From a virus (taxonomy: Duplodnaviria > Heunggongvirae > Uroviricota > Caudoviricetes), in IMG/VR virus record IMGVR_UViG_2695420343_000003: a DNA stretch of 45,821 nt. The stretch is one strand, 5' to 3'. The stretch's first letter is position 1. The number at the start of each line of letters is the position of its first letter. A model generated the notes under the pieces. The model had not been told where the DNA came from, did no database searches, and worked only from the letters and a program-made list of their open reading frames with translations. This document shows positions 8,083-24,143 of this stretch, piece after piece. A program made the position numbers and the translations under genes.

Positions 8083-8586
8083 TTATTGATAGTGTTTTAT
8101 GTTCAGATAATGCCCGATGACTTTGTCATGCAGCTCCACCGATTTTGAGAACGACAGCGACTTCCGTCCCAGCCGTGCCAGGTGCTGCCTCAGATTCAGG
8201 TTATGCCGCTCAATTCGCTGCGTATATCGCTTGCTGATTACGTGCAGCTTTCCCTTCAGGCGGGATTCATACAGCGGCCAGCCATCCGTCATCCATATCA
8301 CCACGTCAAAGGGTGACAGCAGGCTCATAAGACGCCCCAGCGTCGCCATAGTGCGTTCACCGAATACGTGCGCAACAACCGTCTTCCGGAGCCTGTCATA
8401 CGCGTAAAACAGCCAGCGCTGGCGCGATTTAGCCCCGACGTATCCCCACTGTTCGTCCATTTCCGCGCAGACGATGACGTCACTGCCCGGCTGTATGCGC
8501 GAGGTTACCGACTGCGGCCTGAGTTTTTTAAATGGCGGAAAATCGTGTTGAGGCCAACGCCCATAATGCGGGCGGTTGCCCGGCAT
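8083..8586 (-). CDS. insB: IS1 transposase InsB
   Basis: 167-aa ORF matching recalled InsB ([30 protein letters not shown]…). Confidence 0.9.
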
Positions 8587-13805: not shown

Positions 13806-14846
13806 CTAGGAGGCTTTGATTATATTAAGCAAATGTTTTCCAATCGTTTCAGACATCTTCGGAGGGACCGCATTTCCTATTTGACGAGCCCGAGATTGCA
13901 AAGAACCAATAAATTTATAATCCAAAGGAAATGTTTGTAGACACGCTGCTTCACGAACCGATATTGCTCGATTTTGTGTTGGATGTCCAAAACGTCCATT
14001 TGAATAGCTAATACAACGAGTTGTTAGTCCGCTGGCTGGTTTGTCCCAACTCAAACGTCCATATACGTCTGTATGCCCTTTATGGTTACGATGGCATTCT
14101 AAAATCAATTCATCTGGCCAAAATTCTCGACTTCCACCTTCAGGAGTGCATTTTATTCTACGTAAATTAAGCTCTGATAAGCGTGCAGCTTCATGATCAG
14201 GAATACTATTATGCTTTTCTCCTGCTTCTATCTTCGGTAAATTAGCGATCCAGTCCTTTACTGTTGAATAGGGAGTATTTCCAACCCCATGTGTAGGAGA
14301 AGGCAATGCGACATAAAAATCCTTGGATGCAATGAGCACTAATCTTTCTCGCGTCTGTGGTACACCGTACCACGCAGCTGGCATTACTTTATAATCTACA
14401 CTATATCCCTTTGATGAAAGCATTTCTAAAAACATCATGAATGTTCCTTCATTTTTGTTAAACTTTTGCATTCCTGGCACGTTTTCAACAAAAATAAAAT
14501 CAGGCATATAATGCTCTACAAAACGACTGAATTCCTTTAATAGATCTAATCGTGGATCATCATTTTTTTTATTTGAGTTTTGCTTAGAGTACGGTTGACA
14601 AGGCGCACATCCTGAAAAAAGAATGTAATCATTACGATGTTTTTTTACTAACTTGTTTATGGCATTGTTGTCGATTAACCTAATGTCCGAGTTAATAAAA
14701 GCAGCTTGCGGGAAATTTGCACGAAATGAACTGGCTGCATCAACGTCGAAATCGAGGCCAAAAACAATATCCATTCCAGCTTGATGGAAACCTTGGCTGG
14801 TTCCACCACAACCGGAAAAGAAGTCAAACACTTTGATTTTTTTCAT
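13806..14846 (-). CDS. DNA (cytosine-5)-methyltransferase (Dcm-like)
   Basis: C5-MTase motifs: I FDFFSGCGG, IV GCAPCQPYS (catalytic Cys), VI FVENVPGM, VIII QTRERLVLIA, X GNAVPP; AT-rich; 23 bp downstream of the ATPase gene on the same strand. Confidence 0.9.
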   Translation of the reverse strand: MKKIKVFDFFSGCGGTSQGFHQAGMDIVFGLDFDVDAASSFRANFPQAAFINSDIRLIDNNAINKLVKKHRNDYILFSGCAPCQPYSKQNSNKKNDDPRLDLLKEFSRFVEHYMPDFIFVENVPGMQKFNKNEGTFMMFLEMLSSKGYSVDYKVMPAAWYGVPQTRERLVLIASKDFYVALPSPTHGVGNTPYSTVKDWIANLPKIEAGEKHNSIPDHEAARLSELNLRRIKCTPEGGSREFWPDELILECHRNHKGHTDVYGRLSWDKPASGLTTRCISYSNGRFGHPTQNRAISVREAACLQTFPLDYKFIGSLQSRARQIGNAVPPKMSETIGKHLLNIIKAS

Positions 14847-14869
14847 TTTTCCCTCTGCATCCAGAATCA

Positions 14870-16699
14870 CTATCTAATGATACCACGGTCAAGAGCCTGA
14901 GTAATTATTTTTCTTATTTTTATAAATTCAGGCAATTCATTTTTAAGTCTTGCGGTCATCATTTGTTGGAGGCAAAAAATTTCCTCTGCATTTACTTCTT
15001 CTTTATCATACAGGTGTTGCGCTAATAATCTTATTTGATTCTTATACAGCTCTGGATCATTAGAACTCCAGGTCTGTGAATCAATTATTTCTTTTTCACT
15101 TGGCGTAATTGCCTTTTCAATGAGTAATTGTTCGGGAGTATCAAATGGTAAATACTGCACTTTATTGAATGCATACTCAAGCACTTGCCTTTTGAGTCTA
15201 TTAGATTCTTGTTCATTTTTTTTGCCATTACTACCACTGGCATTGATAATTAACTCGCAACCATAATATTTGCACATTGTATTAACTAAATCAGCATCAG
15301 CAATTTCACTAATTCTTACTGGTTTTATTTTTTTGTTTTTATCACCATCAAGTAAAAACAAAATATCATTGCGTTCTACCACAGCGTAACTGGGAAGATG
15401 CTTGCTTAAAATTGTCTCCGAACCACCTGGTATATAACTTACACTAAATGATAAACTTAATCTTTCATAATTTTTAATCGCTTTATCTATAATTGCTTTA
15501 GCTAATTTATCTTCTACAATTATTGTTTTCTTGTTAATATCATGCCCTAGCTCTATAAAAGCTTCATCCGGTGCTATATTTTGAACTATTTTAGCTGTTT
15601 CACTCTCTTCATCAAAAACAAATAATTTAATAGCATCTTTGGGAAGAGTGTTCACAATAACAGGAGAATGGGTTGATATTACCACTTGATGTTTTTTCTG
15701 CTCAACAATAGAGTACAGAACATCCATCATCCTTTTCTGTGCACCAGGGTGAAGTGAAACTTCTGGTTCGTCAAGAAGAATTAATGAATTAGGTTTGGCC
15801 GAATAAATATTGAGTATTAGTGAAACTATTGCAAATTCACCACTTCCAGCAAAAGCTTCTGTATAGTTCAACTTATCAGTTGAAAGTAAAGCGGTTCCTC
15901 CTCTGGTTCCAAATAACCGATGCTCAAGAAATTTAATGACTTTATATTTTTTTCCTAATATAAATGAGACGTGCTCAACTAGTTCTGGCGCCAAGGTTAT
16001 ATTTTTAACAATGGTTTCCGTCCCCCAAAGTCTTAAATTATTTAGCTTTTCATCAAAAGCTTTCTTTATATATTTAGATTTGCTTCTGATATAGTCTTGC
16101 TTTGTAATTAATACACCACTCTTCTTCTTTCTTAATTTAAAATCAGAGTGATACATACATCTATCAAATGCACTTATTTCCGATCTGAAATCTAGGAAAA
16201 CCAATCCCTTCTTGATTTTTTTCCATCTGGTTGCATTACTATTAGCACCCAGATCATCCGAAATACTCTCCATGTTATCACCAACAGATGGTCGACTTGT
16301 TTCCCAATAATCGATTGTTTTCTTGGTAGCATTGATACGCGCTTGGAGTATTTCAACTAAACGGCCATCAGCATTTTTATATCCATATATATATCTAGGC
16401 TTAAGAGAACTGCCATCAGCAAGTTTTAGGTCAGGAAACTCATCTGTTTCAGTTGTGAACCAATAACGAGTTATATTTTTACCATGTGGGCAACCAAATA
16501 GCGCTTTGATAACAGAACTTTTATTAGTTCCATTTTTTCCTACTAAAGCCGTTATAGGGAACTGAAAATCGATCCTTGCATTCTGCTCTATATTTTTAAA
16601 GTATGGAAAACGGATATGTTGTATGAATGGTTCAAATTCACCGTTTTTTAACGCGCACTGGAGTGTTCGAATTTTGCTCTTGTATGCGGAAGTGCTCAT
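14870..16699 (-). CDS. OLD-family ATP-dependent nuclease (ABC-type ATPase + Toprim-like domain)
   Basis: Walker A LVGKNGTNKSS, signature-like AGSGEF, Walker B LILLDEPEVSLHP, H-loop ISTHSP; C-terminal Toprim-like motifs TIIVEDK and FLLDGDKN; very AT-rich. Confidence 0.8.
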   Translation of the reverse strand: MSTSAYKSKIRTLQCALKNGEFEPFIQHIRFPYFKNIEQNARIDFQFPITALVGKNGTNKSSVIKALFGCPHGKNITRYWFTTETDEFPDLKLADGSSLKPRYIYGYKNADGRLVEILQARINATKKTIDYWETSRPSVGDNMESISDDLGANSNATRWKKIKKGLVFLDFRSEISAFDRCMYHSDFKLRKKKSGVLITKQDYIRSKSKYIKKAFDEKLNNLRLWGTETIVKNITLAPELVEHVSFILGKKYKVIKFLEHRLFGTRGGTALLSTDKLNYTEAFAGSGEFAIVSLILNIYSAKPNSLILLDEPEVSLHPGAQKRMMDVLYSIVEQKKHQVVISTHSPVIVNTLPKDAIKLFVFDEESETAKIVQNIAPDEAFIELGHDINKKTIIVEDKLAKAIIDKAIKNYERLSLSFSVSYIPGGSETILSKHLPSYAVVERNDILFLLDGDKNKKIKPVRISEIADADLVNTMCKYYGCELIINASGSNGKKNEQESNRLKRQVLEYAFNKVQYLPFDTPEQLLIEKAITPSEKEIIDSQTWSSNDPELYKNQIRLLAQHLYDKEEVNAEEIFCLQQMMTARLKNELPEFIKIRKIITQALDRGIIR

Positions 16700-19112: not shown

Positions 19113-19343
19113 ATGAAATTTTATGAATTATCTTCTGATTCCCGATCTCAGGCCAGAATCACACTGGGTCAGTTCATTGTGGCTCGGGCTAACGCGGGGG
19201 TGGATGATTTTGAAAATTTGGGGCATTGCATCGCTGCCGCGTTTATTGCGATGGAGCGCTATGAAAGCGCCCCTGAGGTTGGTGAGGGGCGTAGCGGGAA
19301 CGGAATACCCGTTAATGGCGATCAAAACTCACTTCTTGATTAA
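19113..19343 (+). CDS. Hypothetical small protein (77 aa)
   Basis: ATG with GGAG ~8 nt upstream; convergent with and overlapping the 3' end of the 19329..19607 gene. Confidence 0.3.
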   Translation: MKFYELSSDSRSQARITLGQFIVARANAGVDDFENLGHCIAAAFIAMERYESAPEVGEGRSGNGIPVNGDQNSLLD

Positions 19344-19607
19344 ATGCCATGAGCGATCTGCTGCTTGAGTGACTAGCACCCGAGGGTTCTTTTTTATTGT
19401 CCCAGCGATGGCTACAACTTCTTCTCGGACTGCGCGAGCAGATGCGTTTTTTTCGGCTGTGTACTCAGCGTCTGGAAGATAAAACCAGTTTCCTGCTCCA
19501 TCTTGAATTTCGCGAAAGTATCTTCGGGATTCCATCGCCTCATGAAGGCGATTGTAGTCATCGGATGATGCACCCACAAGCTCAACGCGGACAGTAAAAC
19601 TAGCCAT
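19329..19607 (-). CDS. Hypothetical protein (92 aa), reverse-oriented moron between Q and holin
   Basis: ATG at 19607 with strong AAGGAG RBS; MASFTVRVELVGASSDDYNRLHEAMESRRYF…. Confidence 0.5.
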   Translation of the reverse strand: MASFTVRVELVGASSDDYNRLHEAMESRRYFREIQDGAGNWFYLPDAEYTAEKNASARAVREEVVAIAGTIKKNPRVLVTQAADRSWHLIKK

Positions 19608-19726: not shown

Positions 19727-19824
19727 CGTTGTCAGGCTCCGGAAACATCCTCGACTTCTTGTGAGCAAGCCTGAGAGCCTGAATCTTACATTTAGCACCA
19801 TCCGAACTCTCGGAGGTGAGGCTT

Positions 19825-20166
19825 ATGAAAATGCACAATGCCCCTCATTCCTGGCCTGACTTACTGGAACTCTTACAAAGTTGGTGGCGTGGAGATACGC
19901 CGCTGGGCGCAGTGATCATGTCAATTATTATGGCTGGTTTGCGCATTGCCTATTTTGGCGGTGGCGGCGGCTGGAAACGAAAAACGCTTGAGATTTTGCT
20001 CTGTGGTGCCCTGACGCTGACCTTTGCATCCGCGCTTGAGTATGTCGGATGGCCTAAATCACTTTCTGTTGCCATTGGTGGTGGGGTGGGGCTGATTGGT
20101 GTTGATGCTATTCGTGGTGCGGCAATGAGGGTCATCGGTAACAAGTTCGGTGCCCATAAGGAGTAA
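19825..20166 (+). CDS. Class I holin with lambda S-like dual start (MKM)
   Basis: GGAGG RBS 8 nt before ATG AAA ATG; three predicted TM segments; charged C-terminus; immediately upstream of endolysin. Confidence 0.65.
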   Translation: MKMHNAPHSWPDLLELLQSWWRGDTPLGAVIMSIIMAGLRIAYFGGGGGWKRKTLEILLCGALTLTFASALEYVGWPKSLSVAIGGGVGLIGVDAIRGAAMRVIGNKFGAHKE

Positions 20167-20169
20167 TTA

Positions 20170-20646
20170 ATGCAGACACTTAATTCCCAGCGTAAAGCTT
20201 TCCTTGATATGGTGGCATGGTCAGAAGGAACAGATAACGGACGGCAGAAAACCAGAAATCACGGTTATGATGTTATTGTCGGTGGCGAACTGTTCACTGA
20301 TTACTCCGATCACCCCCGCAAACTTGTCACGCTAAATCCGAAACTCAAATCAACAGCCGCCGGACGTTACCAGCTTCTTTCTCGCTGGTGGGATGCCTAC
20401 CGCAAGCAACTTGGCCTGAAAGATTTTTCCCCAGAAAGTCAGGATGCTGTAGCGCTGCAGCAGATTAAAGAGCGTGGCGCTTTACCGATGATTGACCGCG
20501 GCGATATTCGTCAGGCAATCAACCGTTGTAGCAATATCTGGGCGTCGTTACCTGGTGCAGGTTACGGTCAGTATGAACATAGAATCGGTGACCTGATTTC
20601 CCGATTTAAAGAAGCTGGTGGGGTGGTAAATGAAGCTGAGATATAA
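20170..20646 (+). CDS. R: Endolysin, lambda R-like lytic transglycosylase
   Basis: 158 aa, near-identical to recalled lambda R (…QRKAFLDMVAWSEGTDNGRQKTRNHGYDVIVGGELFTDYSDHPRKLVTLNPKLKST…). Confidence 0.9.
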   Translation: MQTLNSQRKAFLDMVAWSEGTDNGRQKTRNHGYDVIVGGELFTDYSDHPRKLVTLNPKLKSTAAGRYQLLSRWWDAYRKQLGLKDFSPESQDAVALQQIKERGALPMIDRGDIRQAINRCSNIWASLPGAGYGQYEHRIGDLISRFKEAGGVVNEAEI

Positions 20647-21022
20647 GCTGGTTATTGTTGCCTTCTTTGTTACCGTCATCGGTTCTTTTATCTGGTCTGC
20701 CGGGCATTACTACAGCAAATATCAACACGAAAAGGAGCGTGCTGATGAGGCTGTACGAAATGCTGAATCTGCAACAGCTATTACCAGTAACGTCCTGCAA
20801 TCACTGCAAATCATCAATACAGTTATAGAGGCTAACCAGCATGCAAAACAGCAGATCGCACTGGAGTCACAGAGAACCCAGGAAGATATCAAAGTGGCTG
20901 TTGCGGATGATGATTGCGCTGTTCGTATCGTTCCTTCTGGCGCAGTTAAGCGGTTGCACGAATACGCGAACGGTATACGTGTCGGTGCCGGTCGTTCCGT
21001 TACCAGCCAGTCTGACGGATGA
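20630..21022 (+). CDS. Rz-like i-spanin
   Basis: N-terminal TM segment (LVIVAFFVTVIGSFIWSA) then coiled-coil periplasmic domain; follows endolysin. Confidence 0.65.
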   Translation: MKLRYKLVIVAFFVTVIGSFIWSAGHYYSKYQHEKERADEAVRNAESATAITSNVLQSLQIINTVIEANQHAKQQIALESQRTQEDIKVAVADDDCAVRIVPSGAVKRLHEYANGIRVGAGRSVTSQSDG

Positions 21023-21185
21023 AACACCCCAGCCAGATTTACCCGACCCGTTTACGTGGGGAGCCAGCCTTAACCTGAATGTTGCGTTGTTGTCAGCGTT
21101 AGCACAGTGCAACAGGGATAAGGCTGATATCAGGACTTTTGAGAAAAACAGGGCAGCACAAACTAATGGCACGATTAAACGTTGA
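20910..21185 (+). CDS. Rz1-like o-spanin lipoprotein (overlapping, +1 frame)
   Basis: Lipobox LAQLSGC followed by Pro-rich segment (PVVPLPASLTDETPQPDLPDPF); starts inside Rz and extends 163 nt beyond its stop. Confidence 0.5.
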   Translation: MIALFVSFLLAQLSGCTNTRTVYVSVPVVPLPASLTDETPQPDLPDPFTWGASLNLNVALLSALAQCNRDKADIRTFEKNRAAQTNGTIKR

Positions 21186-21488
21186 AGTTATCCCACCAGA
21201 CAGCGAAACGATGAACGGGATTTTTGCAGAGATTGAACGTAAATATGCGCATCAGCCGATGACGCCAAAAGTTATCGATGAAATGCAACGCGAAGCGGCG
21301 CGCCTTGTAAGGCGAGCGACAAACACGAAGGTTACGTTTGTTCGGGACTGACATTACAGAAGCTCCTTTGATAAGGAGCTTCGATAATGTCACTAAGAGG
21401 AAAAATTCATGGCAAAACCGGACTGGGAGGCCATCGAATCGGTGCCCCGGGCCAGATTGCTCTCTCCGTTAAATCAGAACTCAAAATC

Positions 21489-21950
21489 CTATCCGTGGAA
21501 AATATTTGCATCCAAATCATCTATGAGATTAGACCTAACTGATTCATAATTTTTCCCATATGCGGCCCCTTTACCTGAATGGGTTACATGCCCAATAGGA
21601 CCGTACAGAAGTATAGAGATTGTGAATGATATTTCATCAGAAATGCCGCCTATCTTTTGAAACCAAAGTTCCGGGTTACGATTCCGGTCGGTTACAACGT
21701 CAAATACAAGCGCGATAAGATCTGGGAGATAGTTCATGTTAAATCCGCCATTTGGGGTCAACTCGAGATTCAACAGGGCTTTGATGGAGGGATAATTGCT
21801 TACATCATCCTGAATGCCATTCTTAAGAGTTGTAAACACAAAGTTCAGCATTTCAGCAACTTTATCTTTGTTTGGTTCTACTCCATTTCTGAAGGACCGC
21901 TCTCCAGATTCATATTTTTCAACACAAAAATCTAATAAATTCATTATCAT
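21489..21950 (-). CDS. Hypothetical protein (153 aa), AT-rich reverse-oriented moron
   Basis: Minus-strand ORF between lysis cassette and terS; AT-rich; hairpin gaagctcctttgataaggagcttc at ~21360..21385 downstream. Confidence 0.5.
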   Translation of the reverse strand: MIMNLLDFCVEKYESGERSFRNGVEPNKDKVAEMLNFVFTTLKNGIQDDVSNYPSIKALLNLELTPNGGFNMNYLPDLIALVFDVVTDRNRNPELWFQKIGGISDEISFTISILLYGPIGHVTHSGKGAAYGKNYESVRSNLIDDLDANIFHG

Positions 21951-21966
21951 TCCCCGAGGTAACTAA

Positions 21967-22518
21967 ATGGCGCTCACCGACAAACAAGAGATGTTCTGTC
22001 GCGAGTACCTCATCGATTTAAACGCCACGCAAGCGGCTATTCGGGCGGGGTACAGCGCTAAGACAGCTAACCGTACCGCATCCGAAAACCTGTCAAAACT
22101 TGACATCAAGTTAAGAATCGCCGAACTGAAAGCGCAACGCAATGATCTTGTTGGTATTAATGCAGAATATGTACTTAATCGCCTTATTGAAATCGACCAG
22201 ATGGATGTGCTTGACATTCTCCTGCAAAACGGTGAGCTAAAACCCATTAAAGACTGGCCTAAGGTATGGCGCACAACGCTATCAGGAATGGATGTCGTGG
22301 AGATGGTATCCGCAGATAGCGCCGCACTTCTGAAGAAAATCAAATGGCCTGATAAGGTTAAAAACCTTGAGTTGCTTGGGCGCCATATTTCTGTTCAGGC
22401 GTTTAAAGACAACGTCAAAAATGAAGTGACTGGTGCTGACGGAGGACCAGTCAGAACAGAAATTACCAACTTAACGCCGGAGCAGGCTGCAGAAGCGTAT
22501 AAAAAAATGATGGGCTAA
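21967..22518 (+). CDS. Terminase small subunit
   Basis: 183 aa; N-terminus [30 protein letters not shown] typical of Terminase_2-type small subunits; directly precedes the large subunit. Confidence 0.8.
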
Positions 22519-22520
22519 GT

Positions 22521-24143
22521 ATGCCGTTACCATTTCACTTCGATTTTAAACATCCTGATTACCAGATGGTTTTTGAATGGCGGATGGAACGCTTACAGCG
22601 CATTCGCCAGAACCCTGAAATATTGCCTGCACTAAAACAGTTTTATCGCACCAACCCGGCACAGTTCATCATCGACTGGGGTATGACTACTGACCCGCGT
22701 AACATCGATTATGGCCTGCCGGTCACCATCCCTTTTCTGCTGTTCCCGAAACAGGAAGAGTGGATTCACTGGATCATGGAGCGGCGCGAACGACTGGAGA
22801 ACGGCATCACCGAAAAGAGCCGCGAAATGGGGCTCAGTTGGACCGCGATCGGGCTGGCCTGCTCGCTTTGTCTCTTCAACAAAGAAATGGTTATCGGTTT
22901 CGGCTCCCGTAAAGAGGAATACGTCGACAGCACCGGTGACCCGAAGGCGCTGTTCTGGAAGGCGCGAAAGTTCGTGGAAACACTGCCCATCGAGTTTCGT
23001 GGTTCGTGGGACGAGAAGAAGCATGCGCCGTATATGCGCGTTGAGTTTCCAGATACTGGCGCGGTTATCAAAGGAGAGGCTGGCGACAATATCGGACGTG
23101 GTGACCGTACCACGCTCTACCTGGTGGATGAAGCTGCATTCCTCCAGCGTCCTCTGTTGATTGATGCGGCGCTGTCGCAAACCACCCGTTGCCGTATTGA
23201 CCTGAGCTCGGTTAATGGCATGGCGAACCCGTTCGCGCAGAAGCGCCACGGCGGAAAAATACCAGTATTCACGTTCCACTGGCGAGATGACCCGCGCAAG
23301 GATGAAGAGTGGTATCGCAGGGAGTGCGAGAAAATCGACAATCCGGTGGTGGTGGCGCAGGAACTTGACCTGAACTACAGCGCATCTGCGGAAGGCGTCC
23401 TGATCCCGTCCGACTGGGTACAGGCTGCCGTCGACGCGCATATCAAACTTGGTATTCAGCCAACGGGCAAGCGACTGGGCGCGATGGACGTCGCCGACGA
23501 AGGCCGGGACAAAAATGCCTTTTCGACCCGTCACGGCTTCCTTCTGGAGAACGTGCGTGAATGGTCCGGCGTTGGCAGCGACATTTACCAGTCTGTTGAG
23601 AAGGTCTTCGGCTTTTGCGAACAGGACAACCTCGAAGAGTTTCGCTTCGACGAGGACGGCCTGGGTGCTGGCGTTCGCGGCGATGCGCGCGCCATCAACG
23701 AACTGCGTTACGCAGCGCGCCGACCGTCAATACTCGCCACACCGTTTCGTGGTAGCGGCGCGGTATTTGATCCGGATGATGAAGCTGTTCGCGGGGACAA
23801 CGGGCAAGCCGCACGTCTGAACAAGGACTTCTTCGCTAACGCCAAAGCCCAGAGCTGGTGGCGGTTACGTAAACTTTTTCAGAATACCTGGCGCGCCGTG
23901 GTTGAAGGTATGGCTTACAACCCGGACGAAATCATCTCAATCAGCAGTAGCATGGCACTCAAAGATAAACTCATCATCGAGCTTTCGCAGCCGACCTATT
24001 CCATTAATGGTGTGGGAAAAATCGTTATTGATAAACAGCCTGATGGAACCCGATCGCCAAACCTTGCCGACTCGGTGATGATCAACTATGCCCCAATGAA
24101 TTCAGCCCTGAACATCTGGGAGCTGCTAGGGAGACAGGCCTGA
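22521..24143 (+). CDS. Terminase large subunit
   Basis: 540 aa; Walker B-like [11 protein letters not shown]; located between terS and portal. Confidence 0.75.

Follow-up and report, generated by a model that had tools for sequence, protein, structure and literature searches.

The gene and its cassette

We describe a reverse-strand gene in IMG/VR virus record IMGVR_UViG_2695420343_000003, a 45,821-nucleotide (nt) stretch of DNA from a virus of the Caudoviricetes, referred to below at its full length as the window. The gene lies in the late region of a lambdoid prophage, divergent from the small terminase gene terS, in a short low-GC cassette that is absent or replaced by unrelated genes in near-identical prophages. 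An earlier note, made from the sequence without database searches, had described an open reading frame (ORF) of 153 amino acids (aa) on the minus strand at 21489..21950, wedged between the lysis cassette and the terminase genes. That ORF is confirmed in the ORF list of the window, and its position was given correctly, with the addition that a small ORF matching phrog_12811 and a 48-nt terS fossil also lie between Rz1 and the ORF. The cassette is composed as follows.

21489..21944, minus strand: cargo gene, 151 aa, stop codon within the coordinates; RefSeq coding sequence WP_001050348.1
21945..21966, both strands: divergent spacer of 22 nt, with ribosome-binding sites (RBSs) GGGGA (cargo gene, minus strand) and GAGG (terS, plus strand), read from the sequence
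About 21457-21966, both strands: low-GC cassette, consisting of 32 nt of 3' sequence, the 456-nt ORF, and the 22-nt spacer

The functional start is the second ATG, at 21944, because every homologue is 151 aa long with the N-terminus MNLLDF, the RefSeq annotation runs from 21489 to 21944, and a Shine-Dalgarno sequence, GGGGA, lies 6 nt 5' of this ATG. Klebsiella copies read AACATA where the window reads ATGATA and so provides an in-frame ATG at 21950. The upstream ATG is peculiar to the window lineage, and the 153-aa version is therefore an artefact of ORF finding. For the same reason the 16-bp gap to terS in the earlier description is right only from the first ATG; from the real start to the terS ATG at 21967, the intervening sequence is 22 nt. 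The low GC content attributed to the ORF holds, at 39.0% (36.8% in third codon positions) against 46-55% in its neighbours and 48.6% in the window, and so does its orientation, on the minus strand and opposed to the late genes on the plus strand. The region 21440-21966 as a whole has 40.4% GC.

The 151-aa product, with N-terminus MNLLDFCVEKYESGERS, has an isoelectric point (pI) of 4.8 and a grand average of hydropathy of -0.21. It has no signal peptide, lipobox, or transmembrane segment, the maximum Kyte-Doolittle score over 19-residue windows being 1.06. From these sequence properties it is predicted to be a soluble cytoplasmic protein.

A hotspot of unrelated cargo genes at the terS start

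The ORF is found in 6 of 5426 complete E. coli genomes, while its surroundings are far more common. The left flank, meaning the first 91 nt of the interval delimited in the earlier note (21352-21966) with its hairpin, occurs in 201, and the terS 5' end in 203, at 82-100% identity. When prophages of strains REL606 and PK8241 are aligned to the window, identity is lost at about 21439-21457 and returns where terS begins. E. coli B (REL606, BL21) is near-perfectly identical up to about 21439, after which the interval holds an unrelated 182-aa reverse ORF, WP_000762846.1. This ORFan has the same flanks, strand, and terS as the window gene, the same low GC, and likewise no known family, with a gap of 19 nt to terS. 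It differs in encoding an unrelated protein, homology to the 151-aa protein having been rejected by sequence comparison, and in being the commoner allele (91 complete E. coli genomes versus 6), carried also by B strains in common laboratory use as hosts. In PK8241 the same hairpin and RBS are followed by an intact small terminase of another type (MAKPDWEAIESAYRAG...) and a PBSX-type large terminase gene (terL), with no reverse gene at the slot. A further prophage, at locus L048, also has no reverse gene there.

A census of the slot, taken over a handful of sampled loci from the 203 genomes with the terS 5' end plus other loci, found at least seven mutually unrelated reverse ORFs, including pid of phages P22 and BTP1. 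They are listed here, with locus labels beginning with L.

Window gene, minus strand: 151 aa, in the window
REL606 ORF, L012:3133-3681, minus strand: 182 aa, in E. coli B
Soluble ORFan, L045:1560-1778: 72 aa, in strain 1223
Hydrophobic protein, L046:1504-1776: 90 aa, in IGC_RcoliRes_1.1
YkgJ-type Cys-cluster protein, L047:1243-1776: 177 aa, in VTB96929v
ORFan, L022:4802-5236: 144 aa, in IMG/VR locus L022
Pid: 86 aa, in P22 and BTP1

The six cargos other than pid have 37-44% GC and start 19-24 nt from the terS ATG, each with a spacer and a Shine-Dalgarno sequence of its own; for pid, the distance between the ATG and the beginning of the fossil terS is about 45 nt. The slot is thus a hotspot, a single position that holds many unrelated short cargos between conserved flanks.

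The left flank of the cassette contains a remnant of a second terminase.

21409..21456, plus strand: terS fossil of a second type, about 16 codons (MAKPDWEAIES...), 48 nt, with its RBS AAGAGG kept at about 21396-21401

The corresponding position in E. coli PK8241 holds the intact gene (L042:2558-3307). The fossil is the left recombination flank of the cassette and marks an old replacement of the whole packaging module. These comparisons show that cargos are exchanged by homologous recombination between two conserved flanks, a left one of lysis, Rha, or fossil terS sequence and a right one formed by the start of terS. On the right-hand side, codons 1-30 of terS (21967-22056) encode protein that is 97-99% identical among 19 distinct terS genes. 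Where the residue is the same, the codon is too at a rate of 0.90-0.93 in this stretch versus 0.52-0.80 elsewhere, a pattern to be expected either from a function at the nucleotide level or from frequent recombination at the flank.

The gene is variably present at the same site among close relatives, and its nucleotide composition is deviant, both of which are marks of a moron. Because it forms a low-GC reverse cassette, is absent or replaced in near-identical prophages, is under purifying selection (documented below), and occupies the slot of pid, we are highly confident that it is accessory cargo of this kind, outside the late operon.

A protein family under purifying selection

A word-indexed search of 5.8 billion proteins found only 7 relatives of the 151-aa protein. 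A HMMER profile search of 1.84 billion representatives extended these to 26 clusters, all of single-domain proteins of about 140-157 aa. In the 29-sequence family alignment, F68, D75, and F81 are invariant, N88, W94, and G115 are nearly so, and the core motif is D.IALVFDVVTE.NRNP.LW. The conserved positions are chiefly core hydrophobics together with a few acidic or amide residues, and the family has no recognisable catalytic signature. Its members are predicted to be soluble and are mostly acidic, with pI values up to 8.6 and neither signal peptides nor transmembrane segments. With this alignment as input, AlphaFold2 (AF2) predicts an all-helical protein of eight helices with a mean confidence (pLDDT) of 91.1 and a pTM of 0.87.

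Neither the 151-aa protein nor any of the 29 family members matches Pfam, NCBIfam, PHROGs, or PADLOC, and the PADLOC-DB v2 hidden Markov models return nothing at E <= 1 for the window protein or its Aeromonas homologue. A profile search of PDB sequences gave noise only, and the AF2 model has no fold relatives in PDB or BFVD. None of these sequence, profile, and structure searches matched a curated family or solved fold, in keeping with the earlier note, which recognised no family. The 151-aa protein thus appears, from these searches and the model, to found an uncharacterised family with an orphan predicted fold.

Copies of the protein that are identical or nearly so are found in E. coli, Salmonella enterica (S. 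Typhi included), and Klebsiella. The S. Typhi copy adjoins terS (STY1046) of prophage ST10, whose late region is collinear with that of the window. A literature search gave no match for WP_001050348 or STY1045. Among 50,697 deposited phage genomes there is one distant relative, the PLSDB plasmids contain no family member, and scans of genome contigs for related loci returned none, then one.

Pairwise comparison with the Klebsiella, Rahnella, and Serratia copies gives dN/dS values of 0.09-0.33. With these values, the 26 homologous clusters, and the AF2 pLDDT of 91.1, the reverse-strand ORF must be viewed as a real, selected gene rather than a chance ORF. The earlier note had held that no transcription in lysogens together with a lack of homologs beyond this phage would suggest a non-functional ORF; homologs were found across genera. 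A spurious or decaying ORF without function would agree with the rarity of the gene in E. coli and with its want of a known family and of a strong promoter or terminator, but is effectively excluded by purifying selection across genera, full-length conservation in the 26 clusters, the confident predicted fold, the well-placed Shine-Dalgarno sequence, and the near-identical copies in E. coli, Salmonella, and Klebsiella.

Genomic contexts of family members

In prophages of Klebsiella aerogenes and K. oxytoca, the family gene is directly divergent from a Terminase_2 terS, and these prophages have three different terL types and differing lysis cassettes. The same arrangement is found in Rahnella and in several IMG/VR prophages, and the gap between the family gene and terS is 22-23 nt in the Klebsiella loci and in L023. 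In L029, L035, and L022 the family gene is more distant from terS, though it again lies between the lysis genes and terS on the opposite strand. The copies in Rouxiella (L038) and L024 face the other, PDWEAIE, type of terS, and the member in Pseudomonas phage PseuP_222 (25% identity) lies 5' of a third type, with one small co-directional ORF between.

Three exceptions are known. In Serratia fonticola the family gene is near an integrase, without terS; in Castellaniella it converges on lysis genes at a prophage end; and in Aeromonas hydrophila a member lies in a chromosomal island, again without terS. The Aeromonas member, which is distant and 139 aa long, is located 50 nt downstream of and co-directional with a PADLOC candidate pair, PDC-M43 A/B (L013:6549-8420), in which PDC-M43A matches at E = 1e-10 and PDC-M43B, a HATPase_c protein, at E = 3e-19. 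The three could form a single unit. The family is tied to the lysis/packaging junction and to accessory-gene pools rather than to one terS.

These contexts bear on two alternatives. In the first, the protein would act on the small terminase or on packaging, for example to prevent packaging by competing phages or satellites, or to hold a leaky terS in check in the lysogen. In its favour, more than 12 lineages, with three terS types among them, have the family gene immediately upstream of terS, and enterobacterial copies conserve a gap of 22-23 nt. But unrelated ORFans share this position and spacing, so that adjacency is a property of the slot; members occur without terS in Serratia, Aeromonas, and Castellaniella; and the gene is absent from most prophages with the same terS. 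We consider a packaging-linked function quite unlikely.

The second alternative is a toxin or abortive-infection effector belonging to a toxin-antitoxin-like module. Candidate partners can be pointed to in some loci, namely a small co-directional ORF (68-71 aa) preceding the gene in Pseudomonas-type loci and an 84-aa ORF following it in K. oxytoca. Such partner ORFs are not conserved across the family, however; the window cassette is nearly all ORF and leaves no partner; and there is no toxin match in PADLOC or Pfam. A module of this kind is highly improbable.

Proteins of the CxxCxxCC/YkgJ type with a Cys cluster were encountered twice, as a cargo of the terS slot (L047:1243-1776) and in the Serratia fonticola island (L002:3719-4330), a few kb from the family gene. 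Their recurrence hints at a shared accessory-gene pool.

Correspondence with the pid locus

The pid locus of P22 and BTP1 has been studied by Cenens 2013 (PMC3573128) and Wolput 2022 (PMC8835761). In BTP1, pid is encoded on the reverse strand, flanked by rha and the packaging genes, and Pid is a small soluble ORFan that modulates host metabolism. It acts in the carrier state and not in stable lysogens (PMC8835761). Its transcription start site (TSS) was mapped 174 nt upstream of the start codon, giving a 5' untranslated region (5'UTR) called 'exceptionally long'; the promoter is weak, with an eroded -10 box, AATCCT, in which up-mutations were found (PMC8835761).

The first 84 nt of the window terS match P22-like phages at 90.6% identity, in the region that BTP1 annotates as pid, and window positions 21968-22217 align with 2505-2750 of L025 (BTP1, LT714109.2) at 79% identity. 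Over 250 nt, the sequence upstream of pid is a decayed version of the first ~83 terS codons, broken by frameshifts and stops, and both the mapped pid TSS and the -10 box fall inside this fossil. The pid regulatory region, by sequence, thus appears to derive from a fossil terminase gene; the word 'terminase' does not appear in the text of PMC3573128 or PMC8835761.

The two loci share an architecture, as read from sequence: a reverse-strand ORFan located between lysis or Rha genes and packaging genes, with the beginning of a Terminase_2 terS as its upstream DNA, which is intact in the window and survives in P22 and BTP1 as a fossil with frameshifts. The correspondence extends to the predicted expression signals of the window gene.

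22114..22142, minus strand: predicted weak sigma-70 promoter, TTGCGT (22142..22137), 17-nt spacer, GATTCT (22119..22114)
21945..22106, minus strand: predicted 5'UTR of about 162 nt, antisense to the terS RBS and the first ~47 codons; predicted TSS at about 22106

The predicted promoter lies within terS codons ~50-59 and aligns with the pid promoter, Ppid (TTGCTT, 17-nt spacer, AATCCT), so that weak promoter hexamers occupy aligned positions and the leader is 174 nt as measured for pid versus ~162 nt as predicted here. By position weight matrix (PWM), the window candidate ranks among the top 0.34% of positions, with a weak score equal to that of Ppid. For the predicted leader, folding shows no significant structure (z = -1.6), and no Rfam family matches it. 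The top PWM match pairs TTGACA with a poor -10 at a spacing of 15 nt and was not preferred, since in P22 the mapped TSS is upstream of the conserved TTGACA. Judged by this homology, a Pid-like promoter within terS that serves the cargo gene is a proposition we regard as evenly balanced.

The loci also differ. The proteins are unrelated, 86 aa for Pid versus 151 aa here, and an hhalign probability of 0.1% led us to reject homology and membership in a Pid family. The pid gene has a G+C-rich Rho-independent terminator, and the window gene has none of its own. Furthermore, terS is intact in the window, so the predicted promoter and leader would overlap a live gene.

The shared slot invites the view that the 151-aa protein is, like Pid, a host modulator, one that would bind a host regulator or enzyme and rewire physiology in the carrier or pseudolysogenic state, with no anti-phage role. 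The slot and its homologous upstream sequence are the same, Pid likewise is a small ORFan protein, soluble, expressed from a weak promoter with a long 5'UTR and active in carrier cells, and the PADLOC scan found no defence signature. On the other hand, there is no sequence or profile similarity to Pid, the many unrelated cargos of the slot make position no guide to function, and a host-specific regulator is a poor candidate target for a family whose hosts range from Escherichia to Pseudomonas, Aeromonas, and Castellaniella. We therefore hold this view to be rather unlikely.

Comparison with other accessory loci

A second precedent is Tab of Pseudomonas phage JBD26, a minus-strand moron beside the terminase genes. 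The prophage expresses it from a promoter of its own, and it gives defence (PMC10884400). Tab is an 83-aa protein encoded between terS and terL; it acts through protein-protein interference and is countered by a late-strand antidote, atab (PMC10884400). By description, the window gene is like tab in being a small minus-strand gene beside the terminase genes in the late region. It differs in lying 5' of terS, in encoding 151 aa, and in having no antidote gene: terS and terL abut in the window, with no atab-like forward ORF between them. Defence is demonstrated for Tab and conjectured here.

The lambda gene bor, which is expressed in lysogens, is reverse-oriented and immediately follows Rz/Rz1, where the late lysis region ends on the right. 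The window gene resembles it as a reverse gene at the end of the lysis region. Bor and Lom are exported outer-membrane proteins or lipoproteins, whereas the window protein has none of the corresponding export or membrane features and no sequence similarity to them; it does not fall in the class of exported conversion or membrane exclusion proteins (Bor/Lom, SieA/SieB/gp15-like). The locus architecture is that of a moron of the pid, Tab, or bor kind.

Variable anti-phage hotspots are also reportedly carried by P2-like prophages and P4 satellites, in work attributed to Rousset in 2022. The terS-start slot is similar to these in its fixed backbone position, with unrelated low-GC cargos alternating between conserved flanks. 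It differs in phage type and position, and its occupants are single short ORFans of 72-182 aa; those other than pid start 19-24 nt from a structural gene, and none matches a known defence system.

Viewed as a single gene, the 151-aa ORF is ordinary, one more prophage ORFan, and its value is in the context. The terS-start hotspot, delimited in E. coli, Salmonella (S. Typhi ST10), Klebsiella, and relatives, offers a cheap source of candidate genes for lysogen benefit or anti-phage activity. It also links such cargos to pid, whose weak promoter and long leader would be explained as parts of a fossil terminase gene. We would accordingly rank the multi-allelic slot, together with the hypothesis of a shared expression signal, as more interesting than the gene itself.

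Proposed expression and function

Our overall explanation, which we rate as having about an even chance of being correct, is that the gene is a cargo allele at the terS-start slot with pid-like expression and a role in the lysogen or carrier cell. In this view, a moron slot with several alleles adjoins the Terminase_2 terS start in lambdoid and P22-like prophages, and the 151-aa ORF would be one of those alleles. Its transcription would be independent of the late operon and, by homology to P22 pid, would begin at the weak sigma-70 promoter within terS, yielding an mRNA with a leader of ~162 nt antisense to the terS start and probably a low level of expression in quiescent lysogens. This transcript would run toward the late mRNA and be complementary to it, so that transcription in lytic growth should interfere with expression of the cargo, which might shut off when the late transcript is abundant.

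The product would bind another protein and act stoichiometrically. Action through a binding partner is favoured because there is no catalytic signature and the conserved positions are mostly core hydrophobics; the sequence and the structural model together suggest that it is most likely a soluble, acidic, single-domain helical protein that works in this manner. The result may be protection of the lysogen or carrier cell against other phages, a form of superinfection interference. The earlier note had proposed a lysogenic-conversion or defence gene. Accessory cargo it is, but neither a PADLOC match, a signal peptide, a transmembrane segment, nor a recognisable fold came to light to bear out the rest. 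By analogy, an anti-phage role is favoured because of the Tab precedent, the PDC-M43 neighbour in Aeromonas, and the ATPase and methyltransferase pair in the same prophage (described below), and we put it forward tentatively, as a possibility short of an even chance.

A further alternative makes the product an anti-defence protein, an acidic inhibitor or mimic that shields the phage from host immunity. The window protein is small, acidic (pI 4.8), helical, and without catalytic signature, and many anti-defence proteins are orphan folds. Its orientation against both the early and the late operons, however, means that it would not be made early in infection; the family pI of up to 8.6 means that a DNA-mimic surface is not conserved; and the family is represented in only 1 of 50,697 deposited phage genomes. 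An anti-defence function is very unlikely.

A number of points weigh against our overall explanation and its anti-phage part. As to expression, the case is drawn from homology. A consensus promoter scan upstream of the gene was empty, and the homology-derived promoter is weak and unremarkable by PWM score. Its hexamers lie in conserved terS codons, where constraint on a promoter and constraint on the protein are inseparable, and the synonymous conservation at the terS 5' end could result simply from frequent recombination. Members that face other terS types (L038, L024, L026) cannot use this promoter. Consensus scans found no canonical terminator here or in three other loci, and none is conserved. 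An RNA sequencing study of S. Typhi reported transcriptionally active cargo in prophages SopE, ST35, ST2-27, and ST46; the text and supplements that were searched do not mention ST10. As to function, neither PADLOC nor the structural searches of PDB and BFVD gave a relative, the window has no partner 'antidote' gene of the anti-Tab kind, and Pid, the sole studied occupant of the slot, modulates host metabolism rather than providing defence.

A bolder version of our explanation makes the terS start a dedicated platform for cargo expression, in which an antisense promoter and leader within the first ~60 codons would drive any ORFan inserted 19-24 nt from the terS ATG, with the 151-aa family as a new-fold effector. 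The platform would serve the seven or more unrelated cargos, pid among them. Complementarity of the leader and convergence of transcription could turn the cargo off in lytic growth, a built-in self-immunity, and the 151-aa family would supply a single-protein effector directed against phages or at the host. We consider this version somewhat unlikely. If a shared antisense signal in terS does exist, it would provide a simple and general coupling of cargo expression to the phage life cycle. As an orphan fold that is predicted to be well folded, the family is suited to a phage-challenge screen.

The surrounding prophage

The genes and features near the cassette, in order of position, are these.

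19816-20166, plus strand: holin, late region of the lambdoid prophage
20170-20646, plus strand: endolysin, late region
20630-21185, plus strand: Rz-like and Rz1/LysC spanins, late region
21166-21351, plus strand: small ORF phrog_12811, function unknown (PHROG 2e-39), which stops at the hairpin and lies outside the cassette
21349..21392, both strands: hairpin or imperfect palindrome of 44 nt, between the phrog_12811 stop and the RBS of the fossil terS
21967..22518, plus strand: terS, Terminase_2 small subunit (Pfam 3.8e-39)
22521-24143, plus strand: terL, late region, abutting terS
From 24143, plus strand: portal, late region

The phrog_12811 ORF is present with every cargo state compared. The hairpin, which the earlier note had placed at 21360..21385 as a sequel to the gene, is real and larger than thought, with a 10-bp core at 21360-21381 that extends to 21349-21392. 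It folds with a free energy of about -27 kcal/mol (z = -7.8 on the minus strand, -5.9 on the plus strand). No U-tract accompanies it on either strand, and a terminator scan made no call. It lies 97 nt past the cargo stop codon and does not belong to the gene. Its DNA is common to the 201 E. coli genomes with the left flank, with or without the ORF, and since it is backbone sequence in these genomes irrespective of cargo, it is not a private terminator of the gene; that candidate was rejected. The hairpin is instead a piece of the ancestral intergenic region of the late operon, and it may form the 3' end of the cargo transcript or stabilise it. Candidate roles for the hairpin itself are a processing site, a protein-binding site, or an atypical terminator.

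A reverse ORF matching phrog_8894 (E = 2e-37, function unknown) is found at 19329-19607 on the minus strand, between the Q antiterminator gene and the holin gene. It resembles a further position for reverse-oriented cargo, and its PK8241 counterpart (L042:478-756) is annotated as a reverse-strand hypothetical protein.

The early region contains an insertion sequence (IS), an IS1 transposase gene at 8083-8586 on the minus strand, and sister copies of the prophage have IS100 or IS26 in head or tail genes (L001, L037). Given the IS1 insertion in its early region, the prophage element may be defective.

At 13806-16699 on the minus strand, upstream of the DUF1367 and Q genes, a C5 cytosine methyltransferase is paired with a 609-aa ATPase of the ABC/OLD type. 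The ATPase matches PADLOC HEC-04 at 6e-35, and AriA-, PtuA-, and GajA-like models match as well; the pair looks like defence cargo. The ST10-like prophage of S. Typhi (L044) is flanked by a 609-aa ATPase with the same Pfam domains.

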